DNA of 63,568 nucleotides, filler included, from Folioceros fuciformis (Eukaryota), in the NCBI GenBank assembly GCA_049999805.1. It is 6 parts of 5 records of this genome, joined end to end, with 100 filler letters (N's around TTAATTAATTAA, not from the genome) between each part and the next. Parts side by side here need not be neighbours in the genome. Positions count along the whole stretch, not along the records: positions 59,537 to 62,424 come from JBNGIO010006219.1; positions 62,525 to 63,568 come from JBNGIO010006290.1; 4 more parts are not named here. One strand, 5' to 3'. Below the pieces are notes generated by a model that was not told the DNA's origin, ran no database searches, and saw nothing but the letters and a program-made list of their open reading frames with translations. Shown one piece after another: positions 6,380 to 63,568 of the stretch. How positions within the stretch are numbered: position 1 is the first letter of the stretch; each line of letters starts with the position of its first letter. The position numbers and the translations under genes were made by a program.

Positions 6380-6419
6380 CTCCTACTCAACACATCAATA
6401 GAAAGACTCACTCCCTTAG

Positions 6420-10420: not shown

Positions 10421-10624
10421 CATGTCTTCACAATTGCACTCAAGCTCCCACGAGCTCAAAGCAAGGAGCTATGCACTTGCACACAAACTCTCACAAGCTC
10501 AAGGCTAAGAGTTATACTTCTTGCACACGAGTTCTCACAAGCATAGAGCTAAAAACTATGCAATAAGACTTGGTCCTGCGTGGCTCATCTCACATGACAC
10601 TAGAACCTCTGAGCTCTGATACCA

Positions 10625-10844
10625 TGTTAGAAAATAGTTAATCCTGAGTTCAATGCTTAGACCAATACCACATAGATCAATTCCCAATCTTGATACAGAT
10701 AGTCTGTGCCTACATATATAGGCTTAGACATAGCCTGATATCTCGTGAGTGATGGACTCTATCTCGATCCTAATTCACTGATATAGATCAAGGATACTTT
10801 GTATAAACATGGATGTGTTGCACAAATCTTATGGATTTCTAACA
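10625..10844 (-). repeat. 5' LTR of Copia B
   Basis: Matches 6155-6379; adjacent to PBS. Confidence 0.96.
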
Positions 10845-27563: not shown

Positions 27564-27663
27564 NNNNNNNNNNNNNNNNNNNNNNNNNNNNNNNNNNNNN
27601 NNNNNNNTTAATTAATTAANNNNNNNNNNNNNNNNNNNNNNNNNNNNNNNNNNNNNNNNNNNN
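27564..27663. other. Artificial contig linker N44-TTAATTAATTAA-N44 (also at 47935-48034, 53194-53293, 59437-59536, 62425-62524)
   Basis: Identical 12-mer with stop codons in all six frames centred in five 100-base N blocks. Confidence 0.95.
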
Positions 27664-30525: not shown

Positions 30526-31644
30526 TCATGCTGTCACAAACGGCAACACCATGAGCATAAACTCCTCGTAGGTGAGAGTAGCCGATCCCTGAAACCGAAC
30601 ATCCTTCTCCTTAAACTTATCAGTCAGGCCCTTGACAACAAGGGAACACTCCAGAAAGTTGTCATAGTCGATAGACTTTGCAAGCCCGGTCCGGTCATAT
30701 CTAGTGACAAGAACCTTCAACAAAGGTGGGGACACGGCGCATCCCATACTTAGCAACGCCTTCCCGAGCTCCTTCACATCCATCCTGCCGCTCCGGTCCA
30801 GGTCATGCTCGTCAAAGATCTTTCTCCAGTCCCTCAAGCTCTTCCACAAATTAGCAAACTCCACTGGCTTGATCTTGAGCGAGCATGTGGTGGAGAAAGA
30901 GTTAATGAGCAAATGAACCGTCCGCAAGCTAAAGGGATGCACCGCCGATAGCACCTTCTGCAGCTCCACATCGTCCACCTGCCCGCTGGCGTCCCGATCC
31001 GCCTGCTGGAACATCCGGATCACCTCCTGGTCTGTGCCCGGAGGAAAGAGCTCCGCCACCCCGTACCCATACCCCGGCTGCTGCCCGTATCCCCCGTACC
31101 CGAAAGACTGCTGCGGCTGGAGCCACGACTGCTGCGGCTGTGGCTGTCCCTGCCCCTGTCCTTGCCCTTGCCCTTGCCCGCCATACCCTAGCTGCGAGCC
31201 ATACCCTGGCTGCGGCTGTGGCTGCGGCTGCTGCTGGCCATAGCCGGACGGGTACTGCGGTGGCGGAGCAGGCGGAGGCTGGCCGTACCCCGTCCCCGGG
31301 GTCCCGTAAGGCGGAGCCGAGGCCTGGGTGAAGGATCCCGTACCCGGCTGGCCATAGCCGCTGGGGGCCGGAGGAGCTCCAGCAGGCGGCGTAGGCCCGT
31401 AACCCGCCCCTTGCGTCTGCCCGTACCGCGGAGGCCCCGTCTGAGCTCCATAGCCCCCCGGAGCTGCCGCTGGCTGGTATCCTCCATAGCCCGCCGCAGG
31501 ATCGTATCCCGCTGAGCCGTAGGCCCCCACCGGAGCTGCTCCTGCATAGCCTCCCGGCTGCGCGTACCCCGGCGCCGCCGGCGGCCACGGCTGTGGCGGT
31601 GCCGTGGGCGGCGCCCCGTGCGGCAGGCCTGGATCGGAAGACAT
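30526..31644 (-). CDS. Penta-EF-hand calcium-binding protein (peflin/ALG-2-like; plant CML48/49/50 type), 372 aa
   Basis: Gly/Pro/Tyr/Gln-rich N-terminus; EF hands DRDASGQVDDVE and DLDRSGRMDVKE; ends FMLMVLPFVTA; intronless. Confidence 0.93.
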   Translation of the reverse strand: MSSDPGLPHGAPPTAPPQPWPPAAPGYAQPGGYAGAAPVGAYGSAGYDPAAGYGGYQPAAAPGGYGAQTGPPRYGQTQGAGYGPTPPAGAPPAPSGYGQPGTGSFTQASAPPYGTPGTGYGQPPPAPPPQYPSGYGQQQPQPQPQPGYGSQLGYGGQGQGQGQGQGQPQPQQSWLQPQQSFGYGGYGQQPGYGYGVAELFPPGTDQEVIRMFQQADRDASGQVDDVELQKVLSAVHPFSLRTVHLLINSFSTTCSLKIKPVEFANLWKSLRDWRKIFDEHDLDRSGRMDVKELGKALLSMGCAVSPPLLKVLVTRYDRTGLAKSIDYDNFLECSLVVKGLTDKFKEKDVRFQGSATLTYEEFMLMVLPFVTA

Positions 31645-38200: not shown

Positions 38201-38869
38201 TACAGTCCTGCTTCCCCCGTCTACTCTCCAAGCAGTCCCAGATATTCGCCTTCAAGCCCAGCGTATAGTCCCACGTCACCAAGTTACAGGTAATGTATCG
38301 CCAAGCAGCATTGTTAAGTGGTTGTTTATCACATGTGGAATCGTCACGGTAATCCAGTAAGCTCCGTGGGTCACGTGCTGAATATTATGTTACTGTGTGC
38401 AGTCCGACGTCTCCATCATATTCTCCAACATCTCCCTCTTACTCACCCACCAGCCCTTCTTACAGCCCGGCTGCTCCATCTCTGACCCCTACCAGGTATG
38501 CGCACCTTCGGATTTACTTTCACTTTTGCTTTGTGCTTCTGCTCTCCGTTTAAGGCATGTCCTGTGTGATCGTTGTAAGCGGGAAACCTTTCTTTTGTGC
38601 AGTCCCTCGTACTCGCCATCCACACTTGGTTACAGCCCGACAGCGCAACATCCGTACAGGTATTACTCAGGGTTCACACAGTTTTCAGCTTGAATGTGCG
38701 GTTCTTTGTGTGCTCTGTCAAGATAACGTGAATTTCTAACTTCTGTCTCGTTGGAAATTACAGCCCTACTACGGGAGGATACTCACCGTCAACCCCAAAT
38801 TCTGGATATTCACCATCCTCTAATCAGTTCACACCGACGTATGGAAAAGATGACAAGGCCAATCCCTGA
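32241..38869 (+). CDS. NRPB1: DNA-directed RNA polymerase II largest subunit (multi-exon)
   Basis: Starts [28 protein letters not shown] zinc site, NADFDGD active site, ~35 YSPTSPS-type heptads. Last exons 38403-38495, 38603-38659, 38764-38869. Confidence 0.98.
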
Positions 38870-47934: not shown

Positions 47935-48989
47935 NNNNNNNNNNNNNNNNNNNNNNNNNNNNNNNNNNNNNNNNNNNNTTAATTAATTAANNNNNNNNNN
48001 NNNNNNNNNNNNNNNNNNNNNNNNNNNNNNNNNNGGAACTGGACAGCAGCGAAGGAGAATGGGAGGGGGGAAAGGTCTGGACAAGAGCGTTGTAGCGCTA
48101 GCAGGCAGGAGATGGAGGAAGAAATTGGCAGCGGGGAGATGGGGAAGCGGGACAGCGGGAGCAAGGTAGGAAGACAGATCAGCGAGCATGATCCTGCAGC
48201 CATTCCAACGGTGCGGGGATGAGGATGGGCTGGAGCTGGAAACCGGGGATGGTGAGCAGGTCGCAGCTCCTAATCCTCCTATAGCGGCCTTCACTCCCAG
48301 CACTCGAGGATCCCTCCCCCTACTTGCAATATGGATCCAAAAGAAGAATCGGGACAAAGGGATGGAGAGGGAAGGGGAAGAAGAGGAAGCGGGACAAGAA
48401 GGGAATGGAAGAGGAAGGGGGAAAGGGAGAAAGGGGGAGAGGGATGGGGGCGGCCGCAACCCCTGCCCTAGCTAGGGCACGGCCTCCATAGCCGTTCAAG
48501 CCAGCCAGCCTGACGTTACACTCTGACATACCATACCCCACATATTCCCGTTCCTAGGTTCCTCTTATTATTCTATATTTATATTATTTAATATAATTCA
48601 ATATTATTTAATCATTTAATATTTTATATCTTTAATTAATATTAAACTAATCACAGATCTAGACTCAACCTTTCCCGACCCTATGGTTCAGTACCGGACC
48701 TAAACCTTCCCAGGTCTGGGACCAAACCTATACCCACTCTTATAACCAAACCAACTACTTCCTAGTCAATTAACCTAATTAGCACAAAGAAAAATAGGAA
48801 AAATGACCAGAAAATAAAAGAAAATTAGGGAAAATAAGTAGAAAAAGAAAACCAGACCATACCACTATTAACCCTTTTTCAATTAAAACAAACTACTACC
48901 CCAAACTTTGGAGGTTCATAGGCTGATCAGGAGATAGCAGTGGTGGAGATCAAAGAGTGAACAGTTGTTTAGCTAACCCGTGGCCGTGG

Positions 48990-51290
48990 AGAAGGCGAAG
49001 TAGTGGGTGGGGTGTGCCCGTTTTGAGGGGTGCCTGCATGTGTGGAACCCTAAGTCGGGCGTGTAAGGGTGAGTTGGGGCCTCGGGAGCGTGCGGAAGGG
49101 GGTTGGGCATAGGCATGGGGGTGGGGTGCTTAGACTTGCTATGGCGTTGCCCAAGTGCGCCGGGGGCTGAGGATCCTGAGAGCAGGCAGCTGGACAGACC
49201 AGGAACAAGGCTAGGCTTGGCCGGATCCTAGTCGGCAGGCGGGCCGACCTGCTGTTGTGGTGGCTCCAAAGAGGCCGGCTGATGGGCGGCTGCAAGCCTC
49301 GGCTGGATTCAACAGGCCGAGGTGACTGCAAGATGGCTTCAGGAAGGGTAGTAGGAGGGAGGCTTGCGGCAGGCAGGCTGTCGGGCCAGGTAGGCTAGGT
49401 CTCGTGGGAAGGCTGCCTGGTCGAAGCTTGGAGCTAGTAGCAGCCCGGCAGTGCGACCAGCTGGGCTGACTCGCTGGTTGCATTGGCGGTAGGATGGCAG
49501 GGGCCTGGCCGTCAGGTCCGGCTACCTTATGGCCAGATCCAGCTAGCCAGTAGACCAGCCGGCTGGTCGAGGATGGGCCAGGCGAGTCGGGTCGCGACGG
49601 GAAGACTAGTCGGGCTGCTGGATTTGCGCAGCAGGGTCAAAGCCAGTTTTAGACGATTGGGCGCAGGGGTGTAGGTCTCCAGGCGTGGGGCTGGAGCTGA
49701 GCAACGGCTGGTGGCTGAGGGGCAGGTGGCCCGACACTGGCACAAGTGGCGGGCCGACACCAGTGCAGGCAGGCAGCCCAGAAGATAGGCCGTCCTGCCA
49801 GCCGGCTTGTTGGCGGCTGGTCGAGGCGGAGCAAGGCGGGTACATCCGGCTTGCCAGCTGGATCTAGCCAGCCAGAAGCTAGTAGGCTGGGGCCCAGCTG
49901 AGGTCCCGGCGGGGTCTAGCAGGCAGGTGGCGGCGCGAATCCTACCAGACGGCTGCAAGCAAGCAGCCCAGTACCGGCCGTAGACGGACAGCTCGGTCTG
50001 GCTGCAAGCTGCCAGCCACTACAACCAGGTGACCTCGTACCGGCAGCAGGGGCAGGGGAGCACTGGGTCCAGATCCAGGCGGGCAAACCCCACCAGGTAG
50101 CATGAGCCGGATTGGCGGCTGCTGCGGAGGGGTCAGCCAGGCCAGGCCATGGCGGCCGAGCAAGTGGCTGAGTCGCGGGGCCCTATGGTCTGCTGGTCGA
50201 GACGGAGTAAGGCAGGAGGGCTGGCTGGGCGCTGGAGGCCGGCCGCCAGGCAGGTGGCTGGCCCAGCAGCAGCCAACTGCTGAGGAGCCACCAGGCCTTG
50301 CAGGCGGCCTAGCAAGGGTTGGCTAGCAGAGACCGGTTGCTGAGCAGCAGTCGAGCAACCCAGCAGAGCAGGCAGCCTGCGGGTTGGGTCCAGCATGCGG
50401 AGCGGATCTAGGTAGCCGGGTAGGCCAAACGGGTGGTTGCAGGCGGTTGGCAGCAGTGGCTGAGGCGGCTAGCCAGCGGGCTCAGGTGGCCCCCTGACTG
50501 GATTAGGTGACATGCGGCCGCTGTGAAGGAAATCCTCGCTGGCAAGGCAAACTCGCAGGCGGGCTGGCCGGATCCAGACGGCGAGCGGACCGGATCTAGG
50601 CAGGTGGTGGCAGATCTGGCTAGCAAGTACGGGCCAGATCAGGAGGCTGGCAGGTGGCTCAAGCAGATGCTGGCTGATCGCCAGACAGCCCAGTCTAGCC
50701 AACAGCCGGCGCAGGCCAACTTGCTGAAGAGGATCCACGCCAGGAGGAGATCTGCTGGCGGGAGGCGGCAGATGAAGAGCTTAGCCAGCAACCATCCCGG
50801 CCCGGCCGTAGGCATGCTCGGCCAGCCAGGACAGCCCAGCTAGTTAACAGGTGAGTCTGAGGAGGCCAAGGCCGGCGCTGGGAAACCAGCCAGGCGGGGT
50901 GTGGTTGGCCTAGATGTTGTGAGGGTTGGCTAGGTAGGAGCAGCGCTGGATCCGCCCGGCCTGGCTGGCCGATCTGGGGCCAGCCATTCGAGCTGCAAGC
51001 AGGTAGCCAGGTAGGCTAGACCGGTGGCTGCAGGCAGCTTGCAGGGGTTGGCAGGCGGCCTGGCAGATGGCCGGATCTCCAGGCAACCAGGCTGCCGTGT
51101 GACGGCTGGCGATTGGCTGGAGGAGATCCTTGCCGGCAAGGCGAGGAGTAGGGGGCGCTACCAGAGCAGGTACCCACTTGGCGGCTGGCGGTTGGCTCAG
51201 CAGAACTTGGGGGGCCTAGTTGCCTGGCCAAATTTGTAAGGACAGAAGGCCGGTGTGCGGCCTCTGGGCGAGCTGGTTGCAGCTGGGGGG
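48990..51290. repeat. GC-rich low-complexity tract (ggcag/ggctg/gcagg) with internal duplications, probably TE-derived
   Basis: No coherent ORF; blocks at 50411 vs 51002 and 50527 vs 51121 are related; preceded by an AT-rich block at 48560-48890. Confidence 0.55.
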
Positions 51291-51347
51291 AGCGTAGTGT
51301 GTATTTTGCGGAGAGAGCAAGGCAATTGCTATCGACTAAACTTTACT

Positions 51348-53193
51348 TGATAATAATAATAGAACAAAATTGTCACTTATGTATCCATCACTTTACGCCC
51401 TTTCGCCCACGAGACCCTGCCAAACTAGTGGCCCTAGCATAAATAACTACGAGTAAGCGAGTATCCCTAACAGATAAACCCTATATGAAGGGTCTTTACT
51501 CTTGTCACTCCTTCTCGAGCGCAACGAGCTACATGCTAAGTCCTTTGCAGCTCACGAGTCCTCGCGGGAGCAGGGGTAACGCCGAGAGGAGGGCTCCCAA
51601 GGTGGAGCCCCAACAGCTCTCTTGCTATAGCCGGGGTGACACCAACCATGAAGAATGGGGTGCGAGCTTTTGTGTTGGGCAGTGCCTGCAGATTGGTAAC
51701 TGTCGGATGACTATCAACCTATCCGTGGACCGGAGAGGTGCTCTCCCTACGGTTGACAACACCAACCCAGACACCCTGCGTGAGATGGAGAGTAGAACTG
51801 ACCTGATCGAGCTGTTGAAGGACACTGCTAGACTGGCTAAGACTTTGAAGGAAGGCCGTTGGGCTGATGGCTAAGCTGTTGTTTGTCGGCAGCCAAGTGA
51901 TTTGGTACGCAATTGGCTTCATCCACCTATTGCGGACTTGCTTGTTTTACTGTGATAACACTCACATTGTGCAGATATCTGGCTGCCAGGGGAGTAAGGG
52001 TAGGTGATAGACTGTCATACGTGTCTCCACAAGGCAAGCTTATGGAAGATGCCTGTGACTGAAGGATGGCTCCTGCCTTCCCCAACCCACCAGATAAGTT
52101 TTGCTCATTGCTCGATATGTGCTGTGAAGTCACCGATCCCCAACACCTCCATGTGCTGGTGATGTTTGTACTTTGGCAAGGCCTTTGTCAGGATGTCGGC
52201 AGTATTGTCGTCTGTCCCAACAAAGCCTACCTTTGTTACACCTCTGTCCACGGCATCTCGTATATAGTGGTGTTGAATTTCAATATGTTTAGTCCTTGCG
52301 TGGAAGCGTGGATTTGCGACTAGGGCCAGGGCAGACATGTTGTCACACGAAATTAGGGTTGGCTCAATGTGCTCCTGTCCGAGATCATGTAAGAACCTCC
52401 TCTCCCACTCTGCCTCCTTTGTTGCTTCAGTTAGAGACTTGTACTCTGCCTCGGTAGATGAGAGTGATATCGATGTCTGTTTTTTGCTGCTCCAGTTAAC
52501 AGCTGTAGAGGCTAACAAGAAACAATATATGTGGATAGGCTTTTGCGGGAGTCCGAGTCTGATGCCCAATCAGCATCTGTGAATCCCGACAAGATAAGTT
52601 TATCCTGCCTGCTGCTCTTGTATATCAGCCCATGATACATGGTGCCTTTAAGGTACCTGAACACCCTTTTTACTGCTACCCAATGTGCTCTACCTGGATT
52701 TTCCAGGAATTGGGAAACCATACTTACAGCACACTGCACATCAGGTCTAGTCCAATTTGTGACAAAAATCAGGCTTCCCACAGCATGCCTGTATGGAACC
52801 CCTTCCATATCCTTTTTGTCTTGGGCTGTTTGGGGGCACATCACACTAGTAAGCTTGACTCCTACTGCTGCAGGGGTAGTAGCAGGTCGACAGTCCTCTA
52901 GCTTGAACTTTCTGAGTATCTCATTTACATACTTAAGCTGGTGGATTATCATCAGCCTATCAGGTCTGTTGCGAATAATCTGAATTCCCAAGCAGAATCT
53001 GAGGGCTCCAATGTCTTTCATTTCAAATTTTCTGATCAGCATAGCTTTGACTTTTGACAGCAAAGGTTGGCTATTGGTGGCCAAGATGACATCATCCACG
53101 TACAGTGCCAGGACTACATAATCTTCTCCCTTGGTAAGCCTGTATTCGTTTGTATCTGCTGTGCTTTGCACAAAGTTGATACTTAAGAGGTAT
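51348..53193 (-). mobile_element. Ty1/Copia C, 3' part (RT/RNase H, long 3' region, putative 3' LTR)
   Basis: YVDDVILA, FTDADWASD, SSTEAEY, RTKHIEIQHHYIR, ADILTK; PPT GAGAAGGAG (51508-51516) then TGACA LTR start at 51507. Far LTR end uncertain. Confidence 0.88.
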
Positions 53194-54188
53194 NNNNNNN
53201 NNNNNNNNNNNNNNNNNNNNNNNNNNNNNNNNNNNNNTTAATTAATTAANNNNNNNNNNNNNNNNNNNNNNNNNNNNNNNNNNNNNNNNNNNNCTTAGCG
53301 AGTAATGTCGTTTCGCATGGTTTAATTTCCAGGTTATATTATATGCCTAAATAGTGATGTATCGTAACACCCCCTCTTAAACCAGAAACGAAACGGCCAG
53401 GAGATAGGGCACGCGCCGCCACACTATGTGGATGAGGGGATGTGAAGTGCGCGACAACGGGTGGTGGAGCATGGACGCTATCTCGAAAGAGTTGCCACGC
53501 ATGGCACGAAAGAATGAGTGGAGTAGGAGGCCAGCGGGCTGTGAGCACGGAGGTGTGGCGGACTCACAGATCTGGGCGAGCACGCGGGGAAGATACCCAC
53601 GCCGCGAAGCTGCAAGTTCCATTTCGCGCGTTTCCCCGAATGCTGCGTTTGTGCAGAGCAGTAGGAAGTTGTGCATGTGACCGATTCACTGATCCAGACT
53701 GTGTATCCGCGGGGCGCGCACTAGGGAGGCCTGTGCGCTGCGGGAGCTGCAGGTAGCATACCGCACGCGCCTGCCCCAGAGTCCAGAAATTTCAGTTCTT
53801 TTCTTTTGTTTGTGCTGGATGGTGAGCGGATCAGGCCCGTGACTTGGCTCCTGATCTTGGGTCGCTTGTGTGCAGGCCATACGCACCATAGGTTGCTGCT
53901 GGGTCTTAGCAACATGTAGACCAGATGCTTAGATCTCCTTGATGCTTCATCCGTCTGGCTGGTGATTGTTGGCTGCAGGCGGGCATAATAACTCGCCCTT
54001 TAATGACCAATGATGTCCAGTCGCATACGTTCACCTAGGTTTGACTAATCAGCATAGCTGTGCTCCCTCGTATGACAGGTGATTGTGGGAGCAGGGCTGT
54101 GGGGTCTGCAGGGGAAATATTAGGCATCAGCTAGGGCAGCCGTCTTCAGGTAACATGCTAATTTCCCCCTCTCAGTCCCACGGCCCTT

Positions 54189-57100
54189 TCATCTATCAAA
54201 GTAAGCGGAGTAGTCGCTAAGGCCAAGCCCCCTTATATGTAAATAGTGGGAAAGCTTGGGCAGTCCTTTTGTGAAAATATCTGCTGTGTTTGCTTCAGTA
54301 CTCACATGATCAACTTTGATGATGCCTCTGGACACCAGGTCTCGTATGTAGTGGTGGTGTACTTCGATATGCTTTGTACGAGCATGGAAAGTTGGTCTGG
54401 AAACAAGATCCAAAGCTGAGGTGTTGTCGCGCAAGATCACCGTAGGATCTGGCTGTGGGTGATTAAGACCTGTTAGAAAACTTCTCTCCCATTCTGCTTC
54501 CTTAGCTGCTTCGGTTAGTGATTTGTATTCAGCTTCAGTAGAGCTGAGAGCAATGGTTGACTGTTTTTTGCTGCTCCAGGTAACAGCTGCTGAAGCAAGG
54601 AGAAAACAGTATGAGGAGATGCTTCGTCTTGAATCGGAATCTGACGCCCAGTCAGCGTCTGAATAGCCAGATAAGGTAAGCCTCTTCTCTCCACTCCTTC
54701 TGTACGTGAGGCCATAATTTAACGTGCCTTGAAGATAACGGAAGATCCGTTTCACTGCTGTCCAGTGTGCTCTTCCAGGGCACTCAAGGAATTGTGATAC
54801 TGTACTAACGGAGTATTGTATGTCAGGTCTTGTCCAATTGGCGACGAACAGCAGGCTGCCCACTGCGTGCCTATAAGGTACACCTTCCATGTCTCTAAGT
54901 TCATCTGGGGTCTGTGGGCTTTGCTGACGAGTTAGCTTAGTACCCACTGCATATGGGGTTGTCACAGGTCTTGCCTGGTCTAGGTGGAACTTGCGTAGGA
55001 TTTCAGTGATGTATTTTCTCTGGTGTATATACATTATACCAGCATCACGCACACGTAGAAGTTGAATTCCTAGGCAGTACCTCAACTCTCCAATGTCTTT
55101 CATGTCAAATCGCTGATGGAGCTGCTACTTCACATCTGCTAATAGTGACTGATCGTTTGTGGCAAGGATTAAATCATCAACATAAAGGGCAAGCAACACA
55201 GTGGAAGATCCTCTCTTGAGCATGTACACATTGCTGTCAGCGGTGTTTTGAACGAAACCAATACTGATCAGTTCGACATGCATTGTGAGGTACCATACTC
55301 TGCCACTTTGTTTTAATCCATAAATGCATTTCAACAGCCTAAGCACTTGGTGTGGGTGTGCAGGGTCTTCATAGCCTTCAGGCTGAAACATGTACAACTC
55401 CTCTTCGAGGACTCCGTATAAGAAGGCAGTACAGACGTCCATCTGTTCAAGGTCGAGATCAAATTCTGTGGCATAAGCAAGAATCAAGCGAATTGATTGG
55501 CTGCGAACTACAGGTGAGAATGTTTCCTGGTAGTCCAGCCCTTCCACTTGAGTGAAGCCTCTTGCTACCAGTCGTGCTTTGAACCTAGCAACTTCACCTT
55601 TAGCATTAAGTTTTAACTTAAATGTCCATTTGCAGGATATGGCTTTCCTGCCTGGAGGGAGATCAGTGAGCGTCCAAGTTTTGTTCTTCACCAAGGACTG
55701 GTATTCTTCTTCAACTGCTTGCTTCCATTGCTCGCGTTGTGGACCATTAAATGCCTGAGTTAACGTGGTGGGTTCCTCAGGTATAGGAGAAGGTGGTCCA
55801 AGAGAGGCATGGGTCCGAAAATCAGTGGACACATAGGGAGGTTCCTTCCATTCAAATGGAGGAGGTCTGTGACGTGTGGAGCGACGGGGAGGATCAGCAG
55901 CTGGTTCAACCTGAGGTGGAGGCTGTGGAGGGTCAGCCATGGAAGGTGCTGCATCAGCGGGCCCTACTTCCCCCTCTGCATCCAATACAGGTTGATCAGG
56001 GGCTGCATCCAAGGTTTGCATTTCTCCTTCAACATTTGCATCTGCATTTGTCTCAAGGTTGTGAGTAGGAGCTAATGGCTGATGTCCTGTAGGCGCAGGA
56101 GGGGGAGCCATGGGTTCAGGCTCATCCTCATCAAGGGGAAAGTCAGCAAGTCGGTCAGCTGGGGCAGATGTAATGGGATCATCTGGTGGGCTGTCATCAA
56201 GAACAGGGCTGTGGAGCTCGACAAAGTGACACTCCTAGCAAGGACAATAGTGTCAGTGTCTTTGTTATACAGTTTGTAAGCTTTTGAATGTTCACTGTAG
56301 CCAACCAGGATAAGTGCCTCAGCACGGCTGTCTAGCTTATGTCTTTTCTCCTTAGGTATATAGGCGTACGCGCGGGATCCAAAGACTCGGAGGTGAAGGA
56401 GGCTGGGCTTCTTGTTCCAGAATACCTCAAATGGGGTTTTATTTGGAACGGTGCTGGTGAGGACGCGATTGAGAATGTATGTCGCTGTCACTATGGCCTC
56501 CGCCCAATAGCCTTGAGGTAAACCTGCCCACAGCAACATGCTCCTCGTCATAGACAATAAGGTTTGATTTTTCCTTTCTGATACTCCGTTTTGTTGAGGT
56601 GTGTAGGGCACTGTTGTCTGGTGCAATATCCCGTGAGATTGCAGCAGGTCTTGAAAGTTGGAGTTTACAAATTCAGTGCCATTGTCTGTCCTGAGAGTCT
56701 TCAGAAGTTGCCCAGATTGTCTTTGAGCAGTGGTAAGCCAGTCCTTGAAGAATCCAGAGGTGTCACTCTTGAATTCCATTGGAAATGTCCATGTGTAGCG
56801 GCTATAGTCATCAGTTATAGTGAAAAAATAGCGGGCACCTCCTAGTGAGGGCTCATGGACCTTGCCTGAGATGTCAGCATAGACTAACTCAAGGACTCTT
56901 GTGGCTCTCTGTGCAGGTGAAGTGGGGACTGGCAATTCCTTTTGCTTCGCGAGTATGCAGGGTTCACATACAGGTAATTGTTTGAAGCATTTAGGTAGGG
57001 GCTCACGATGGCATCCTAGGGTTGACATGTCTATTAGCTTAGACTGGTTGACGTGGCCCAAACGGGCATGCCAAAGCAAGGCCTGCTGTTCTTGGCTTAA

Positions 57101-58474
57101 GTTAGAGGATGAGGTTGAGTGAGTAGCCTCATTTAGCTCAGGTCCTGTACAGGTAATGTTCAGCCTGTACAGGTTGCTTGCGGGCAAGCCCTCAAAGGCA
57201 CATGTATGAGGGGATGACTGCCTGTAGAAACAGCAGTGTTCATGGTCTGCATGCATGTAGAACATGCGTTGACGCATGATTTGACTCATAGACATGAGAT
57301 TTTTGGCCATGCTTGGGACATAGATGACATCATCTAGGGTTAACTCTATGCCATCATGCAGTGTGAAGACACACGTGCCTCTACCCTGGATAGGTAAGCT
57401 TGACCTACTTTGTTCATCTGCAAGGAATACCTGACCTCCTGTTTGTGTCAGGTCTAGGATTTTGAAAAGTTCCTTTTTCTTGCAGATGTGGGCGGTGGCC
57501 CCCGAATCAAGATACCAGCAGGTGTCATCACTCCGAGTGCTGAACAGGCATACCGTAAGTATCTTCACAGGGGCCTTGGGGTCTGCTTTATTCTGCCTCA
57601 CTGCTACATTTGCTGTAGCCTTTGGCTGGCGCTGGGGCTCACCTGCCTTGCGTTTGCGGCATTCTCTTGCCCAGTGGCCAGGGAGGCCGCACCAGTTACA
57701 GCTGCCAGGGCGTTTGGCAGCATTAGAGGGTTCTCCCCTCTGTCTTTGTGCTGTGGGAGCTCGGAACCTTGCCTTGCCTTTGCGAAAGTTAGTAGCTAAT
57801 GCTTTCTCCCCTCTGTCCTTGGCAGCTGAGGAGAAAGTACGGCTCTGCTCCTCCTGGAACAGTGCACCGATCACCTCCTCCAGGGTGATGGTCACTGTCT
57901 GGCCAGAGGCAGCAGCTGCGGCACGTATGGGGCCATTTTGGCTTGTCACAAATGTCTGGTAGGAGGCAGGGAGACTGGTCAGGAGCTGGGCGATGGCGTC
58001 CACTTCTGACATCTTCTCTCCTGTCATGGCTGTAAGTTGAGCACGTAGGTGCCTAAACTTGCAGACGTGGGAGGCTACTTTGTCTCCCTCCTTCATTTTC
58101 AGAGAGTAGAACTCTTGCCTTACTGCACATAAGGTCATCATATTCTGGATTTTATAAGTCTTCTCTAACTGGTCCCATATGGCATGTGCAGATGTCAAGT
58201 ACTCCACATCAGGGACAAGGTCCGAGTCTAGTCCACCAATAATCAGCGCAACGGCAATGGCGTTGAACTGCTCCCATTTAGCAATCTCCTCTAGGGTTGG
58301 TGCAGGGCTACTGGACGGGTCTGGTTTAAGGTAAGTACCATCTACGGTGGTCCAGACTCCCCTGGCCAGCAAGGTGGCCTTCATTCTGACCCTCCAGACA
58401 TTATAGCCCTGCCCCTTAAACCTATCTTTTTCTTTGAGTTCAGAGGTGAACGTAGGTAAGCTACTGGATGCCAT
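54189..58474 (-). pseudogene. Copia D gag-pol with one frameshift (~56230) and one premature TAG (55125)
   Basis: CNWCGLPGHWAREC, YLDSGAT, WHARLGH, TDNGTEF, YVDDL, SDADWA, ADIFTK. Confidence 0.92.
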
Positions 58475-58596
58475 CGCTGCTTGTTGATTAGGATGCAGTG
58501 ATAGGTTTTGAAAACCACTAATGAGTGAGTTTAATTGTGCAGCAGTGAACACGAAGCTATGTAGCTATGTCACTACTGTCTCGCTACTACCTGTCC

Positions 58597-58725
58597 TTCT
58601 TTCTTACGTTGTGTTATCTCCAGCGAGACCTTGTTGGGCGCAGAGTTCAGGGGCCATCAAGAGTGATGGCTGCTGGATCCTGAGCCCAATTAAAGGTCTC
58701 GCCAGGGGTCACCGCAACATAAAGG
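58597..58725 (-). promoter_or_regulatory. Conserved rod-like RNA hairpin in Copia D leader
   Basis: 85/93 nt identical to 60653-60745; nested stems; function unknown. Confidence 0.75.
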
Positions 58726-58927
58726 TGTGTCGTTATGTGGCTACGAACCCTAAAGCTAATGTATAGTTAGGGTTTTTCTAACAGACGTGTCCCAAGCACA
58801 TGGAATGGTTTTCCAGGTGTACCAATGGAGGAGCACCAGTTGAGGCCTTCGTAATGAACTCAAGGTGCATCACGGCGGTTCAGATCTGGTGCTCTCAGTT
58901 GCTGCTACTCCCCTGCAGCGGAAGGGT

Positions 58928-59311
58928 CTAATGAAGGCTGTCTGATCTTGATGAAGTGGGTAAGCCCTCCAAGATTTGGCCCAAAAATTCTGAAATTTGT
59001 TGGGTACTTGTCTTGGCTTCATCAATTGGGGTGTGATTAACTTGAATGTCTGTGTCACAGCCTTCGGAGATGATCCTAGATGGAGCTTGGAAAGACAATA
59101 GGCTAGACAGCAATCTCTCCACGCGGCTGAGAATATTCTGTGATCTGTCAAGGATTTTTCTCAGCCCTTTTAGAGAATTGATGTCGGGTTTGTCTTTATG
59201 CCTTGCAGGTGCTCTGCGCGTCTTGGAATTCTGTTCTGCGCAGCAAACATGGCACATGGAGGCATGGGAATCATAGGCGCGATGCGCATCGGAGGGGCCT
59301 CCACATCGCAT
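58928..59311 (-). CDS. Candidate ORF0 upstream of gag in Copia D (127 aa)
   Basis: ATG-initiated, sense to gag; DINSLKGLRKILDR resembles DIPEIDGAYRVLSDR of Copia E ORF0. Confidence 0.45.
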   Translation of the reverse strand: MRCGGPSDAHRAYDSHASMCHVCCAEQNSKTRRAPARHKDKPDINSLKGLRKILDRSQNILSRVERLLSSLLSFQAPSRIISEGCDTDIQVNHTPIDEAKTSTQQISEFLGQILEGLPTSSRSDSLH

Positions 59312-59893
59312 AGGTGAAAAACACCGTAGACTGGGGAGGGTTTGCCACCGGGCGCTTGCCCTTCTAGGGGAGCGCGCAGCCTCAAAAGGGATGTGCGCCG
59401 TGTGTACAGGTGGTTGACTTCCGGCAGAGTATTCCCNNNNNNNNNNNNNNNNNNNNNNNNNNNNNNNNNNNNNNNNNNNNTTAATTAATTAANNNNNNNN
59501 NNNNNNNNNNNNNNNNNNNNNNNNNNNNNNNNNNNNTTTTGTATATAAACACTTTTGTTGATATTAATTGAACAATCTTTATGCACAACTTGGTGAGTAG
59601 TGTGAGATTCTCTAATGTTTAACATGGTATCAGAGCAATCTACGTTTGGATATTTATGTCTGCAAAAATTTCTATATAGTAACATGTATGCGGGGTCGAA
59701 GAGAAGATGCGGACACAAAATCCATTAGTCACATCATGTGGTTTCTGGATCTTGTGTCTACATTTTCTCTCCCACCCTGCGATACAACGTCAGTACTATG
59801 TTACAATTTACAGTTTGCATGACAATATCAGAAACTAGAAATTCCGCTGTGCACATCTGCTTGCGAAAGAGCAGCAGATGATGAAAGTTGAAG

Positions 59894-60418
59894 ATGCCTC
59901 GACGGAGACGATCTCGGGTCGAGCCTCCAACTTTTGTACCCTGCAGCCATTCCAATTTCAGTGAACGTGTGGGATTAGTAAGGCCTGTTCGGGATTATAG
60001 AACAAGACAGGACAGAATCCCACACATCCTCTCTCGATCAAATTGCCGTACGCATGTTTTAGGCCAACCCAAAGTCAAGCCAAAGAATGCGTTCGACCTC
60101 GGATCAACAGACATACCTGAAATTGATGGGGCTTACAGAGTGCTCAGTGACAGGTTGACAACTACACAATCAGTGTTGCTGACGGCTCTCTCTCGCCAGA
60201 GTGAGATGCAAATTGCTCGGCATCAAGAAAATCTGGCAGCAATCGACCTTTTCTTGCGAATACAAACCACTCTGTTGAAGGAAGTGCGAGATTTAACAGA
60301 ATTGATGCAGGAGTTTACCTCTAATTCTGGAGCGCCTTCTACAGTCACAGATTTGCTGCAGATGCTTTCTCCCAATCGCGAGAAGTTCAGATCGAAGGAG
60401 TCGCCGGCGGCGCTGTAG
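59894..60418 (+). CDS. ORF0 upstream of gag in Copia E (174 aa, basic N-terminus plus coiled-coil)
   Basis: Intact ORF MPRRRRSRVE...; clear homologue at 62724. Confidence 0.72.
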   Translation: MPRRRRSRVEPPTFVPCSHSNFSERVGLVRPVRDYRTRQDRIPHILSRSNCRTHVLGQPKVKPKNAFDLGSTDIPEIDGAYRVLSDRLTTTQSVLLTALSRQSEMQIARHQENLAAIDLFLRIQTTLLKEVRDLTELMQEFTSNSGAPSTVTDLLQMLSPNREKFRSKESPAAL

Positions 60419-60640
60419 CAGTCGGCCAAGTCTCACTGCACCGCCAGATCCGAAATGTCGTCTGCTGGAATTTTGGCGCGGCCAAGTCCTGGCTGGGATC
60501 TGTGACCCATCATAGCTGCTGAGATTCCAAGAGGCGTTGCCGTTGCGCTTGCCGGCTGTGCTCTGTCGTATGGACGCCCCAACTTTGAAGCGTCGCGACT
60601 TTCGGACCTGCAACATTAGATGCCTGTAGAGCACTCAACC

Positions 60641-60765
60641 TACGTTGTAATTACCCCTGGCGAGACCTTCAATTGGGCTCAGGATCCAGCAGCCATCACG
60701 TTGGATGACCCCTGAATTATGTGCCCAACAAGGTCTCGCTGGAGACAATACACCGTAAGAAAGAA
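60641..60765 (+). promoter_or_regulatory. Conserved rod-like RNA hairpin in Copia E leader
   Basis: CUGGCGAGACCUU/AAGGUCUCGCUGG, UUGGGC/GCCCAA and UCAGG/CCUGA stems; shared with Copia D. Confidence 0.75.
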
Positions 60766-60794
60766 CAACCACGATTTCAAGCACATAACTTTCA

Positions 60795-60886
60795 GCAACC
60801 TAATCCTCCTTGTCCAAGCACTTACTGAAGAAGGTCTTGCGCGGCTTGATCACCCGCCTTGATCCCTTCTTCCCTAAGTAGGTTGC
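60795..60886 (+). promoter_or_regulatory. Stem-loop with palindromic UGAUCA loop just upstream of gag AUG (DIS-like)
   Basis: GCAACCUA/UAGGUUGC, GAAGAAGG/CCUUCUUC and GCGG/CCGC stems; loop CU-UGAUCA-C. Confidence 0.65.
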
Positions 60887-60887
60887 C

Positions 60888-62424
60888 ATGGCAACTGGAA
60901 GCACAGGGGGAAGCGCTGCTGGAAGTAGCAGCGGAGCGGGATCTGTTCCCATTCTTCCTGCAGTCCTTGTCATACCTCAGCCTTCTTATTCTGTTGAATT
61001 CAAGGAGAGGGACAGGTTTAATGGCTTGAAATTCGAAGGCTGGAAGGTGCGCATGACAGCTGCCCTGCAAGCGCGACACGTTTGGGGAGTTGTTACTGGC
61101 ACGCTCAAAGAACCAGCATCATCTGCTACACAAGACGAAAAGGACAAGTGGGCGAACCTGAATTACGCCGCACGCGCCGTCTTAATCAGCAGGCTGGACG
61201 AATCCCTCCTCGCCGATGTTGCTTTTCTCACCAAGGCTGAAGAGATCTGGACTCTTCTTACACAGACATATGAGGCTAAGAACATTCTTACCATGTGTGC
61301 TGTTCGGGGCGAACTGTTTTCCTTACGTCTTAAGGAAGGCGACAAGGTTTCTCCTTTTGTCATTCGCTTCAGACAACTGCGAGCTCAATTAATCAACCTT
61401 GGTTCACAGTTCCCTGAGCTTGATGCCGTTAGCCAGCTGCTGACAAGTCTGCCTCCAAGCTATCAAACATTCGTTTCCAGCTATGGAGCCACTGTCCGAG
61501 CTGCTGATGCTGCACGAGCTGCAGGACAACCCACAAATATAAATCTCGCAGACGTGATAGGAGCTTTGCTTCAAGAGGAACAAAGCAGGCTCACGTCTAC
61601 TTACCATGGTGGCAAGACAAAAACTGATAAGGTTCTGTTCACCAAAGGCAAACCTGCCAAACAAAGACCTTTCCCTGGAGCAGTTTCTAAACCTGGCTCC
61701 ACAAAACGGACTGGAACTTGCAACTGGTGCGGTATCCAGGGCCACTGGGAAAGAGAATGTCGGAAAAAGAAAGCTGGTGAGGCACGCAAAGCTGAGAAGC
61801 CTACCCGACAGGCTGAAGCACATGTTGCTGCCACCAAGGACCGTCCTTCCACTTCGACACCTCACAAGCAACCTGTAGTAATGACGGTTTGCTTCGCTTC
61901 GTCTGCTTTTCGTCCTTCCTCACACACATGGTACCTGGACTCGGGGGCCACGTCTCACATCTGTAATGCCAAGTCCATGTTCTGTCATTATAGATCGTCC
62001 ACTACCACTAACAAGGTTTTGTTGGGTGATGAAGTGACTCGTACAGGTCTGAGCATCCAAGGACATGGTACCTGCGTGTTTCGCTTGAATGATGGCTCTC
62101 TCCTGCACCTAGAAAACGTGCTGCATGTCCCTCACATGGCTAAGAATCTGATATCAGTCAGCCAGTTAATGTCTCTACGGCTCTACGACCTTTTGTTCAC
62201 TTCGTCTAGCTGTCAGCTTACAAAGCGAGGGGGAGATAGAAAGGTCATAGCCACTGGTATTTTAGTGCATGACTTGTATCAACTCAACTTGACATGTTTA
62301 CCTGAGGGCATGGCACATGTTGCACAACTTTCTCAAGCTGCAGAGGCTAGTTTATGGCATGCTAGACTAGGTCATGCTAATCGGGCCAAACTGATAAAAA
62401 TGTCCAACCTCACATGTTACCGAG
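60888..62424 (+). CDS. Copia E Gag-Pol polyprotein (partial, open to gap)
   Basis: KERDRFNG..W, CNWCGIQGHWEREC, YLDSGAT, LWHARLGH; no stops over >500 codons. Confidence 0.93.
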
Positions 62425-62723
62425 NNNNNNNNNNNNNNNNNNNNNNNNNNNNNNNNNNNNNNNNNNNNTTAATTAATTAANNNNNNNNNNNNNNNNNNNN
62501 NNNNNNNNNNNNNNNNNNNNNNNNTTCTATCCTGGTGTATTAGATGTCTGTAGAAAGGAGTACGTTCTCTTAATACAAAGTCTCTTCTACTCTTACACAT
62601 CTGCATCAGCGATGGGTTTTTAACCGAGATATTGCACGATAGAAAATGCAAACGCAAAATTTCCGCCGCGCGGATCTGGCTGCTTTACGGCAGCAGGTTC
62701 GACTGTTTTAAATCCGGTTGAAG

Positions 62724-63135
62724 ATGACTCGACGGGGACGATCTCGCGTCGAGCGATCCACATCTCCCACCTGCCATCAATACAGAGAGAGGAATCAAAT
62801 TTTCAGGATTCGAGAGGGGTCGGATCTGGAGGAGACTTTTCAATCCAGTGTCCCTGATCTACCTGAAATTGTTGGAGCATATAGGGTGCTCAACAATCGG
62901 CTTACCACAACGGAAACAGTACTTCTTGCTACTCTTTCTCGGCAGAGCGAGATTCACACTGCCCGGCATCAGGAATTTCTGGAAGCCATTGATCATCTCC
63001 TGCGCAGGCAAACCTTCGCTATTAAAGGGCGTTCAGCAACTTACAGATCTGGTCACAGATTTGCAGCGGCGAGTTGCCTTCAAATTCGAAGTCCTAGCCT
63101 CTGAATGCTCTGGCTTCGCCGCGCGAGATGCCTAG
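62724..63135 (+). pseudogene. ORF0 of Copia F (frameshift near 63015)
   Basis: MTRRGRSRVE...DLPEIVGAYRVLNNRLTTTETVLLATLSRQSEIHTARHQE; continues LLKGVQQLTDLV in the next frame, like E's LLKEVRDLTELM. Confidence 0.72.
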
Positions 63136-63365
63136 ATCGCAACCGTCGCCAGATGCCTGCTGAAGGGGCGCGTCGGCTGCTTGCGTGGCATCGTCGATTC
63201 CTCCCGCCGCAGCGTCGGTGTGGGTGCCCTATGCGCCTCCTCCCGGTTGCCTGCGCCCTTTCACTCCAGCCGCGAAGCGCTGGGTCTCGGCCCCAATCGA
63301 CAACCATCTATGTCGGTTGACACCTCTTGATTGCCTCGCTCCTTCGCCTTGCAATCCTTGCAATC

Positions 63366-63441
63366 CTGACCCATTTTTTTGAAGATGACCCTGTACCAGC
63401 CTGATCACCTGGATTAGCGTCTTCTTCACAAAGCAGGTCAG
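63366..63441 (+). promoter_or_regulatory. DIS-like stem-loop upstream of gag AUG in Copia F
   Basis: CUGACC/GGUCAG, GAAGAUG/CGUCUUC and CCAG/CUGG stems; loop CC-UGAUCA-C. Confidence 0.65.
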
Positions 63442-63568
63442 CATGGCCACAGGAACAGGCGGAGGAGGAGGAACATGAGGAAGTGCAGTAGGTGGTGGCG
63501 GAGGGGGAGGAGGTGTAGTCGCCCTCCCGCTCCCTGCCGTACCTGTGATTCCTCAGCCATCCTACTCT

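Follow-up and report, generated by a model that had tools for sequence, protein, structure and literature searches.

An open reading frame (ORF0) located in sense orientation between the PBS and gag is probably, with a rough probability of 0.6, a genuine family-specific accessory gene of one group of Ty1/copia elements, for whose protein we propose an RNA-cofactor mechanism. It is very likely that the element has in ORF0 a real gene under selection; the RNA-cofactor mechanism of the protein, taken by itself, is tentative. Ty1/copia elements are usually seen as minimal gag-pol machines, and where plant LTR retrotransposons are reported to carry additional genes, these mostly lie 3' of pol or belong to Ty3/gypsy lineages. 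ORF0 is a small frame 5' of gag with clear protein-level selection, placed in a leader of very stable, partly exchangeable RNA modules. The original prediction had assigned the extra gene to a Copia lineage that also took in the elements D and A. The gene is shown for a narrower group than predicted, formed by the elements E and F and the database protein P0001, and not for D or A.

The window (the whole stretch of 63,568 nucleotides that was analysed) is concatenated from contigs joined by N44-TTAATTAATTAA-N44 linkers. The region 59894-63135 spans two of these contigs and is not one locus; E and F are separate contigs (Table 1). The LTR assignment in E is putative, being drawn from the adjoining PBS on a contig that carries no second LTR. 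The PBS sequence, TGGTATCAGAGC, which we take to be complementary to the 3' end of the plant-type initiator tRNA-Met (tRNA-iMet), has a single further exact match in the window, which belongs to another Copia (minus strand, 10613-10624); no tRNA genes were found in the window. The E polyprotein matched the Pfam families Retrotran_gag_2 (3.2e-27), Pol_BBD (6.2e-22) and gag_pre-integrs (5.2e-06). Its Copia-type gag with a CCHC knuckle (CNWCGIQGHWERECRK), followed by protease, points to Ty1/copia as the class of the host element. Ty1/copia elements have integrase ahead of reverse transcriptase; in the related element D, on the minus strand, the ORF at 56072-58552 contains rve (residues 555-652) and is followed by RVT_2 (55125-56111). 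A, D and E all carry the knuckle CNWCGxxGHWxxECRK, as had been predicted.

Table 1. Features of E and F and of the leaders of D and A (positions along the window).
Feature	Position	Strand	Description
Element E	59537-62424	+	contig; starts inside the putative 5' LTR, ends before integrase
E 5' LTR, last 88 nt (putative)	59537..59624	+	terminal ...CA adjoins PBS; contig begins here
TATA-like TATATAAA	59542-59549	+	in E LTR remnant
Short ORF	59581-59622	+	13 codons; in E LTR remnant
Donor-like GGTGAGT	59592-59598	+	in E LTR remnant
E PBS TGGTATCAGAGC	59625-59636	+	exact match
HP1	59639..59840	+	~200-nt near-perfect hairpin in the PBS-ORF0 interval; holds 7 of the 9 upstream ATGs
ORF0 of E	59894-60418	+	ATG start; 174 codons (59894-60415); TAG at 60416-60418; intact
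HP2 of E	60653..60765	+	113-nt block; hairpin with 13-bp base stem; 90% identical to D copy (blastn)
E gag-protease-(pre-integrase) frame	60888..62424	+	open for 512 codons to contig end
Element F	62525-63568	+	contig; ends at 63568, just into gag
ORF0 of F, part before the frameshift	62724..63014	+	97 codons; aligns to P0001 residues 1-137
ORF0 of F, frameshift zone and continuation	63015..63135	+	+1 frame to TAG at 63133-63135
F gag start	63443..63568	+	in-frame TGA at 63476-63478 (codon 12)
HP2 of D	58597..58709	-	in D leader (at least 962 nt; gag ATG 58474, minus strand)
D leader ORF	58928-59311	-	127 aa; positional analogue of ORF0, not a demonstrable homologue
A leader ORF	4916-5122	-	68 aa

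The predicted leader of about 1.25 kb with an intact 174-aa sense ORF was found in E as described: the leader measures 1251 nt from the end of the PBS to the gag ATG, and ORF0 lies on the same strand as gag-pol, in a frame different from that of gag. It is preceded by an in-frame TGA 12 nt 5' of its ATG and has its own stop, 469 nt before the gag ATG. Its place, after the 5' LTR/PBS and ahead of gag, is the one that defines the 5' sense class of additional frames (aORF-5'S / eORF-5'F). When the 1251-nt leader was shuffled, only 5 of 5000 sequences contained an ORF of at least 174 aa, the median longest ORF being 60 aa. This result excludes a chance ORF in E. Independent contigs from the runs X1/X2 also contain the ORF0 sequence of E, differing from it at 4 and 7 positions and showing no gaps. 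Nine ATGs lie upstream of ORF0 and five more between ORF0 and gag, and a 28-codon upstream ORF starting at 59878 overlaps the ORF0 start. In run X4, guessed to be RNA, only 57 nt of gag were touched, at less than 90% likeness, which has no bearing on expression.

When 1.84 billion representative proteins were searched with an HMM, exactly one relative of ORF0 emerged, P0001 (185 aa, E = 2.7e-36). P0001 is intact and 42% identical to ORF0 of E from end to end, with only in-frame indels. In a word-based search of 5.8 billion protein clusters, E ORF0 alone gave no match, and a profile of the three ORF0 sequences gave P0001 as its sole match; metagenome scans for ORF0 peptide patterns yielded 201 pattern matches, none of which was confirmed. 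The homologue announced for F is there with the quoted peptides, but its ORF0 is not intact. It lacks ~29 codons of the variable linker found in E and shifts to the +1 frame near 63015-63021, where the DNA alignment has a one-base length difference to E; read on in the +1 frame, the peptide matches residues 133-153 of P0001 (E = 5e-5). F is a dead copy, its ORF0 being frameshifted and its gag interrupted by a stop. ORF0 is thus carried by all three readable copies, intact in E and P0001 and frameshifted in F; P0001 was drawn from a protein database, where open frames are all that can be represented. The reads of runs X1/X2 hold a further copy, ~80% identical and laid out as in E: leader and ORF0 start (59601-59928), a diverged stretch of equal length, a gap-free core (60104-60267), 716 nt, and gag. 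ORF0 is therefore carried by E, by F, by the element from which P0001 derives and, in all probability, by this fourth copy.

This distribution bears on the origin of the frame. LTR retrotransposons are known to capture genes, and an additional ORF of a family is told from a single transduced copy by its presence in all or most family copies (PMC7264820). ORF0 might accordingly have been acquired by transduction, as part of a host gene or of a different mobile element, but it sits at the same position in at least three diverged members, whereas the typical copy number of transduced genes is one or a few (PMC7264820). The database searches, with P0001 as the only relative, no Pfam family and no other match in the window, also speak against such an origin, which we regard as highly improbable.

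The original prediction had further placed ORFs of D and A in the same position as ORF0. Leader ORFs do exist in both elements, yet neither is homologous to ORF0. By tblastn, ORF0 matched E and F only across the window. The D leader ORF compared with E ORF0 gave a BLASTP E value of 0.20 and an hhalign probability of 0.2%, and the protein database search with the D leader ORF found no relatives. In the shuffle test, ORFs as long arose in 780 of 5000 sequences for A, within chance, and in 87 of 5000 for D, a borderline count. D and A were ruled out as ORF0 carriers by the tblastn, BLASTP, hhalign and shuffle results.

Selection on ORF0 was estimated from E and F over 89 of the 174 codons, the linker (E residues ~18-66) being unalignable or deleted in F. 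Over these alignable codons, dN was 0.285 and dS 1.287, which corresponds to an omega of 0.22 (bootstrap 95% interval 0.10-0.41), and 0 of 1000 replicates reached 1; the dN/dS check proposed in the original prediction thus gives a value that is not near 1. The linker is accordingly fast-evolving or unconstrained. In the conserved core, omega is 0.14 (JC-corrected NG86). The ungapped core (59 codons, 177 nt) shows 17, 9 and 32 differences at codon positions 1, 2 and 3, respectively, and 29.8 synonymous versus 28.2 non-synonymous differences, in agreement with the many synonymous changes that had been noticed. Its pN/pS ratio is 0.31 in the ORF0 frame, which has no stops, against 0.46-2.26 in the five other frames, each with 2-7 stops. 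Along the leaders, E and F are 70% identical at the ORF0 start, 61-75% in the nearly gap-free core and 66% at the gag start; these are the best-conserved long, near-gap-free stretches, most of the remainder being gappy at 36-57% identity. These codon-level comparisons show that ORF0 was kept under purifying selection while the copies diverged to synonymous saturation.

An alternative explanation treats the frame as a mere relic or by-product, whose conservation reflects either RNA-level constraint (packaging, dimerisation or structure) or a recent common origin instead of a functional protein. The leader is indeed heavily structured, and one of the three readable copies is frameshifted. However, RNA constraint predicts neither the third-position excess nor the lowest pN/pS in the single stop-free frame, and synonymous saturation (dS 1.29) indicates that the copies are not recent. 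When divergence to 33% was simulated by substitutions only, 0.5% of frames of 174 codons stayed open, whereas two copies only 42% identical keep full-length frames here, and the frameshifted copy, F, is dead in gag too. We consider this alternative quite unlikely.

The predicted ORF0 protein of ~175-185 aa consists of a disordered, strongly basic N-terminal part of ~70 residues followed by one ~70-residue helix. In the AF2 model, residues 14-62 and 64-70 have pLDDT below 50, and the predicted helix spans residues 75-144, with block means of 92-98 across 81-140. Residues 1-70 have a pI of 11.7 and contain 16 K/R, and the helix region has a pI of 4.7. The N-terminal Arg-rich 10-residue motif has 8 of 10 positions invariant in all three copies. 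Many polar residues of the helix are conserved, and in the best heptad register only 11 of 20 a/d positions are hydrophobic, a weak pattern. The original description of an Arg-rich protein with a coiled coil is hence upheld for the basic N-terminus and the long helix but not for a canonical coiled coil. Pfam detected no family in E ORF0 and two sub-threshold matches in F (0.024 and 0.066, far below the cut-offs), a profile search of the PDB had no match at E up to 10, and Foldseek found none between the AF2 model and the PDB. With the ESM Atlas, the best score was 0.75, recognition being under the useful range. The ORF0 protein matches no family or fold.

Such a small, basic, lineage-restricted protein, which has no homologues beyond the family, could also be an anti-defence factor that suppresses RNA silencing or RdDM, by analogy with VANDAL anti-silencing proteins and viral suppressors. 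The fast-evolving or deleted linker is what host conflict predicts, the ~200-nt hairpin HP1 may be a Dicer substrate, and modulation of RNA silencing has been proposed for the Tekay 5'aORF proteins (PMC11728184). On the other hand, selection on the core is purifying, not diversifying, and neither a dsRNA-binding domain nor any other recognisable domain was found in ORF0. An anti-defence role seems unlikely to us on balance.

As predicted, ORF0 is situated next to structured leader RNAs, between the strongly structured HP1 and HP2. The 257-nt segment 59637-59893 of E folds at -95 kcal/mol (z = -7.97), and none of 200 shuffled sequences was as stable. The 13-codon short ORF stops 16 nt before the base of HP1, and the ORF0 ATG follows 54 nt past the hairpin. 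Rfam reported no family at gathering thresholds across the whole window, and HP1 had only hairpin-shaped matches far below threshold. The second hairpin, HP2, has folding z-scores of -4.4 in E and -6.0 in D, and the distance from its end to the gag ATG is exactly 123 nt in both elements. No similarity to HP2 was found in F, and a metagenome scan with the 23-nt HP2 core gave no matches. As D has HP2 without ORF0 and F has ORF0 without HP2, the two are not an obligate pair. The elements thus combine these modules differently, E and F sharing ORF0 and D and E sharing HP2, which suggests leader recombination between co-resident families.

E and F both have a conserved pyrimidine tract, with an AG after it, immediately 5' of the gag ATG, unlike the surrounding leader. 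A scan of E from 59537 to 60960 for the one donor-like motif GGTRAGT found a single match at 59592, 5' of ORF0. A further alternative is that ORF0 is a 5' exon spliced to gag, yielding an N-terminally extended Gag, or a uORF that only tunes gag expression. The conserved tract and AG, as well as the many ATGs ahead of gag, which call for RNA processing or regulated reinitiation, are compatible with this idea. Against it stand the ORF0 stop, present in E, in P0001 and in the ancestral frame of F, the lack of GGTRAGT in or after ORF0 within the scanned part of E, and the conservation of the peptide, which is unexpected for a purely regulatory uORF. The exon or uORF explanation is improbable.

Under the accessory-gene reading, ORF0 would be translated as the first long cistron of the unspliced full-length RNA, with ribosomes possibly bypassing the very stable HP1 as in pararetroviral shunting. 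Since gag-pol is preceded by ORF0 and by no fewer than 14 non-gag ATGs, our proposal needs a spliced or otherwise re-routed mRNA from which gag-pol would be made. The protein might serve as a nucleic-acid-binding cofactor acting on its own structured leader RNA in export, stability, packaging or translation; the basic N-terminus would account for RNA binding and/or nuclear targeting, and the long helix could provide self-association or a partner surface.

Rev, Rex and Rem are small retroviral proteins with an N-terminal Arg-rich stretch, acting in a setting where the full-length RNA has large conserved hairpins and may have to escape splicing. Their likeness to ORF0 is an analogy only, with no homology. 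Rev/Rex-like regulators are marked by an Arg-rich RNA-binding/NLS motif, multimerisation, a leucine-rich export signal, a cognate structured RNA element inside an intron and dependence on incomplete splicing; the E leader has HP1, HP2 and donor-like and acceptor-like motifs. Moreover, they are encoded 3' of pol and ORF0 lies 5' of gag, and HP2 and ORF0 are separable, as seen in D and F. One could imagine a complex-retrovirus-like programme in which ORF0 is expressed through a shunt across HP1 and gag-pol through a splice from a U5 donor to an acceptor just ahead of the gag ATG, while the ORF0 protein binds HP1 and/or HP2 so that intron-retaining RNA is exported, stabilised or packaged, as a Rev/Rex-type system of independent origin in the Pseudoviridae. 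We give this full programme, built on analogy, little credence. The Rev-like and silencing-suppressor readings of ORF0, both raised in the original prediction, are speculation.

The E leader resembles the shunt leaders of CaMV and RTBV, which contain several short ORFs and a very stable stem-loop, with a 5'-proximal short ORF ending near the stem base (PMC2241666). In E, the 13-codon ORF, a putative part of the RNA, is followed in corresponding order by HP1 and the ORF0 ATG; CaMV and RTBV belong to the Caulimoviridae, whereas E is a Copia element.

Frames in sense orientation that lie after the 5' LTR and ahead of gag have been described in Ty3/gypsy, in Tekay elements (ORF0 of Retrosat2, RIRE3 and RIRE8; the sunflower Tekay 5'aORF) and in Ogre (PMC3485330, PMC11728184), so ORF0 is not unprecedented. 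Like the frames of rice Retrosat2, RIRE3 and RIRE8 and of sunflower Tekay 13-2, it is sense, 5' in the order LTR-ORF-gag-pol, conserved in its family and, as those are presented in the cited parts of these reports, without outside homologues. The sunflower protein is mostly disordered, with a few alpha-helices and a predicted NLS (PMC3485330, PMC11728184). Unlike the Ty1/copia ORF0 described here, however, the Tekay frames reside in Ty3/gypsy chromoviruses, and the sunflower protein is larger (~400 aa). No sequence relationship to Tekay ORF0 emerged from the library profile search, an indirect test that returned P0001 only.

The REXdb survey applies the same concept to extra ORFs (eORFs), counting 582 Ty1/copia elements with eORFs of at least 250 codons in 45 similarity groups; its eORFs, which include the Ogre eORF-5'F and the SIRE eORF-3'F, are heterogeneous and mostly without known domains (PMC6317226). 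ORF0, with 174 codons in E and 185 in P0001, falls below that cut-off. In the sections of the survey cited here, the Copia eORF that is discussed is that of SIRE (PMC6317226), which sits 3' of pol and before the 3' LTR, whereas ORF0 lies 5' of gag. The background given with the original prediction, which named Sireviruses and Ogre, was thus incomplete, omitting the Tekay frames of Ty3/gypsy and the 582 Ty1/copia elements with eORFs (PMC6317226). Among the listings and text passages covered by our literature search, none describes a Ty1/copia element with a sense ORF ahead of gag; the supplementary lists of PMC6317226, which give eORFs by element and lineage, may include Copia frames of this 5' sense kind. 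Surveys with cut-offs of at least 250 codons can miss accessory genes, and ORF0 offers a compact candidate of ~20 kDa for accessory roles such as RNA handling, nuclear targeting or anti-silencing.

The genome is probably that of a plant; an animal host, considered on account of the RPB1 scores given below, was rejected as unsupported. The closest Copia gag clusters were mostly from Streptophyta. RPB1 gave its best scores against mammalian chains, and with the CTD repeats removed, mammalian and fission-yeast chains scored about equally (856 versus 846 bits).

Most extra ORFs described for LTR retrotransposons are found downstream of pol and are either sense (env-like) or antisense, according to the available part of one survey (PMC7264820). 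Sense ORFs 5' of gag, likewise named ORF0, are described for rice Retrosat2, RIRE3 and RIRE8, all Ty3/gypsy elements, and in the accessible portions of the sources this rice type is reported from grasses only, with a divergent sequence (PMC3485330; PMC4093653). In sunflower, Tekay group 2 (Ty3/gypsy) carries a 5'aORF of ~400 aa in 500 of 523 elements, encoding a mostly disordered protein with a predicted NLS and three helices, as far as the available text describes it (PMC11728184). Known 5' extra ORFs extend beyond Gypsy Ogre, the one 5' case that the original prediction named. For Copia, REXdb records 582 Ty1/copia elements with an eORF of 250 codons or more, sorted into 45 groups, and the accessible part of its description singles out among Copia only the SIRE ORF 3' of pol (PMC6317226). 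In the literature searched, no sense ORF 5' of gag was described for any Copia, an absence there rather than proof. The Tekay 5'aORFs resemble ORF0, the extra sense ORF in the leader (PBS to gag) of the Copia elements E and F, in position and protein style. However, because the superfamily differs (Ty3/gypsy versus Copia) and homology is undetectable, ORF0 is not a member of the Tekay 5'aORF family. Judged by its pattern of conservation, ORF0 is a real small gene under selection that lies in a Copia leader and had not been annotated before.

The long leader of E with an intact 174-aa sense ORF was confirmed. ORF0 is the one long sense ORF of the 1251-nt leader, and only 5 of 5000 shuffled E leaders contained an ATG-ORF of at least its length (median 60 aa). 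Since the window is divided by spacers into six separate pieces, the finding covers two short contigs, E (59537-62424) and F (62525-63568), and not one locus; no physical linkage holds across a spacer, and arguments from the adjacency of features on its two sides are invalid. The claimed homologue in F was confirmed, with the quoted peptides, but its frame is not intact. The two ORF0 copies differ in length by one base near 63015-63021, as a result of which the F frame stops early, at 63102-63104; the +1 frame of F encodes the homologous C-terminal helix and then stops at 63133-63135. The gag frame of F is interrupted as well, by a TGA at codon 12; F is a dead copy.

Coordinates of the leader features, elements and pieces of the window
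Feature	Position	Strand	Description
Pieces	1-27563, 27664-47934, 48035-53193, 53294-59436, 59537-62424, 62525-63568		six separate pieces
Spacers	27564-27663, 47935-48034, 53194-53293, 59437-59536, 62425-62524		N44-TTAATTAATTAA-N44 (44 N on each side)
Fourth Copia, compact	6155-10844	-	LTRs ~220 bp; leader ~150 nt, ordinary
D leader	58475-59436	-	at least 962 nt; no PBS before contig end; holds 127-aa ORF
HP2 in D	58597-58709	-	113-nt block, 90% identical to E
E 5' end	59537 onward	+	88 nt ending ...CA, PBS directly after
E PBS	59625-59636	+	TGGTATCAGAGC, directly after the 88-nt stretch
HP1	59639-59840	+	~200-nt hairpin between PBS and ORF0
ORF0 of E	59894-60418	+	174 codons, ATG start, TAG stop; in-frame TGA 12 nt upstream
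HP2 in E	60653-60765	+	113-nt block, 90% identical to D
E gag frame	from 60888	+	open for 512 codons up to contig end
ORF0 of F	from 62724	+	homologue of E ORF0

Much of the E and F leaders is essentially unalignable (36-57% identical, with many gaps), the mean column identity being 69% overall. Three long conserved stretches, nearly free of gaps, stand out: the start of ORF0 (70%), its core (61-75%, with no more than one gap column in 60) and the start of gag (66%). We estimated selection by the Nei-Gojobori method from a protein-guided alignment of 89 codons, in which the two frame segments of F were treated separately, as they stand, and the linker (E residues ~18-66), deleted or unalignable in F, was excluded. 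The resulting dN of 0.285 and dS of 1.287 give an omega of 0.22, with a bootstrap 2.5-97.5% interval of 0.10-0.41 and none of 1000 replicates reaching 1; the dN/dS ratio, originally proposed as a check, is thus not near 1. The 59-codon core alone gave an omega of 0.14. The 58 differences in the ungapped core are distributed 17/9/32 over codon positions 1/2/3, and the ORF0 frame has a pN/pS of 0.31 and zero stops there, compared with 0.46-2.26 and 2-7 stops in each of the five other frames. This pattern argues against purely RNA-level conservation. That ORF0 is a relic, or is conserved through constraint on the RNA, appears improbable beside these values, even with the broken frame of F and the structured leader described below.

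Among 1.84 billion representative proteins, searched without a length filter, a profile built from the E and F proteins retrieved a sole relative, P0001 (185 aa, E-value 2.7e-36), which comes from a public read assembly (a contig of 939 nt) and is alone in its cluster. P0001 is intact, aligns with E ORF0 end to end, starting at residue 1 (42% identity, all indels in frame; E-value 1e-39), and matches F ORF0 both before and after the frameshift. When substitutions alone were simulated at the observed 33% divergence, a 174-codon frame survived open in 0.5% of simulations, so that two full-length frames at such a distance would be difficult to account for if selection were absent. Within the limits of two DNA copies and one protein, ORF0 is a coding sequence, and we consider it probable (about 0.8) that it is a selected protein-coding accessory gene of the Copia family group comprising E, F and P0001. 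Word-based searches of 5.8 billion clusters gave no further ORF0 relatives and metagenome scans no match; protein databases show open frames only, and broken ORF0 copies are invisible to the type of search that found P0001.

Two DNA runs of one sample carry E, with 4 differences in 1359 nt and 7 in 1528 nt and zero gaps. A second copy, ~80% identical to E, is present there as well and has the same architecture, in the order leader with ORF0 start, diverged stretch of equal length, gap-free ORF0 core, 716 nt (663 in E) and gag. Position 60231, A in the window, is T in every contig covering this base from the sequencing runs X1, X2 and X3; the change is non-synonymous (codon 113, Asn to Ile), and the aligned residue is Phe in F and Leu in P0001. 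X3, a run of the same sample, differs from 59537-62424 at 427 places, 211 being C>T and 166 G>A, and looks like a bisulfite-converted library.

The ORF0-bearing lineage is narrower than originally proposed. ORFs ahead of gag are indeed present in the Copia elements D (127 aa, 58928-59311, minus strand) and A (68 aa, 4916-5122, minus strand), but neither is an ORF0 homologue. A tblastn search of the whole window with both ORF0 proteins found nothing beyond E and F, and the D ORF compared with ORF0 gave a BLASTP E-value of 0.20 and an hhalign probability of 0.2%; no database relatives were found for it. An ORF as long arose in 780 of 5000 shuffles for A, which is ordinary, and in 87 of 5000 for D, which is borderline.

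Of the predicted Arg-rich, coiled-coil character of the protein, an Arg-rich N terminus and a long predicted helix were borne out; the heptad signal of the helix is weak (11/20). Residues 1-10 are nearly invariant in all three copies (Met-x-Arg-Arg-x-Arg-Ser-Arg-(Val/Cys)-Glu), as is, without exception, Cys at position 17. Residues 1-70 contain 16 K/R and have a pI of 11.7, compared with 4.7 for the helical region. An AlphaFold2 model based on three sequences only (mean pLDDT 65; below 50 for residues 14-62 and 64-70) predicts a single continuous helix over 75-144 (block means 92-98 over 81-140) and a short helix at 151-158. Invariant helix residues are often polar (Arg, Gln, His, Thr, Ser, Glu), which hints at a surface for specific binding and not at a generic zipper. 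The protein might act upon the RNA of its own element through the basic N terminus, and the long helix could serve self-association or offer a surface to a partner. Such a role as an RNA cofactor is the likeliest mechanism considered, though less likely than not. An anti-silencing factor, which could equally be a small basic protein, is unlikely, and a host fragment captured by the element is very improbable. ORF0 had no match in Pfam, the PDB (sequence and fold) or the ESM Atlas. The bolder, complex-retrovirus-like regulatory reading is a long shot.

As an accessory gene, ORF0 would be the first long cistron that ribosomes translate on the full-length RNA. Nine ATGs precede its own, seven of them within HP1, the hairpin between PBS and ORF0. 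The 257-nt stretch containing HP1 folds at -95 kcal/mol (z = -8.0), and none of 200 shuffles folds as well. A 13-codon ORF (59581-59622) stops 16 nt before the base of the HP1 stem, and the ORF0 ATG lies 54 nt past HP1, a layout like that of the minimal ribosome shunt in CaMV and RTBV as set out in the available part of PMC2241666. Ribosomes might perhaps bypass HP1 to reach ORF0. The gag-pol product could then be made from a processed RNA or through reinitiation, with five more ATGs between ORF0 and gag. The sole GGTRAGT in the E leader is a donor-like GGTGAGT in U5 (59592-59598), and a pyrimidine tract with AG just 5' of the gag ATG (E 60864-60880, F 63424-63437) is conserved where the neighbouring leader is not; together they possibly delimit a candidate leader intron. 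ORF0 might alternatively serve gag as a 5' exon or as a regulatory uORF, for which the conserved tract with AG and the many ATGs ahead of gag could be cited; the donor-like site lies upstream of ORF0, which has its own stop codon, and we regard this reading as improbable. A TATA-like motif occurs in E at 59542-59549.

HP2, the hairpin block between ORF0 and gag, folds with z = -4.4 in E and -6.0 in D on a base stem of 13 bp, and in either element its end lies exactly 123 nt upstream of the gag ATG. D and E share only 45% identity in their gag proteins, and their leaders outside HP2 are not alignable. HP2 was not found in F and had no match in Rfam; possible identities are a conserved cis-element and a module spread by recombination. 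ORF0 is shared by E and F and HP2 by D and E, a distribution that points either to families in the same genome exchanging leader segments or to constraint that is very uneven.

D lies on the minus strand of the contig just before that of E. The PBS of E is of a type that presumably matches plant initiator tRNA-Met, and its gag frame contains the Retrotran_gag_2, CCHC knuckle, Pol_BBD and gag_pre-integrs domains. The host is probably a streptophyte: of the 10 Copia gag clusters listed as nearest to E gag in the ESM Atlas, 8 have Streptophyta as their commonest phylum, one has Basidiomycota, and one has no recorded taxa. The fourth Copia has an exact iMet PBS (10613-10624, minus strand) and matching LTR blocks 93-98% identical (6155-6379 versus 10625-10844, the 5' LTR). 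Its leader is short, so that long leaders are not general in the window. Host genes are also present. The largest subunit of RNA polymerase II (RPB1) runs uninterrupted for 990 codons at 35321-38293 (plus strand), covering domains 4-7 and CTD repeats; without the CTD, this exon gives much the same score against mammalian chains as against those of fission yeast. A host ORF with EF-hand pairs lies at 30526-31644 (minus strand).
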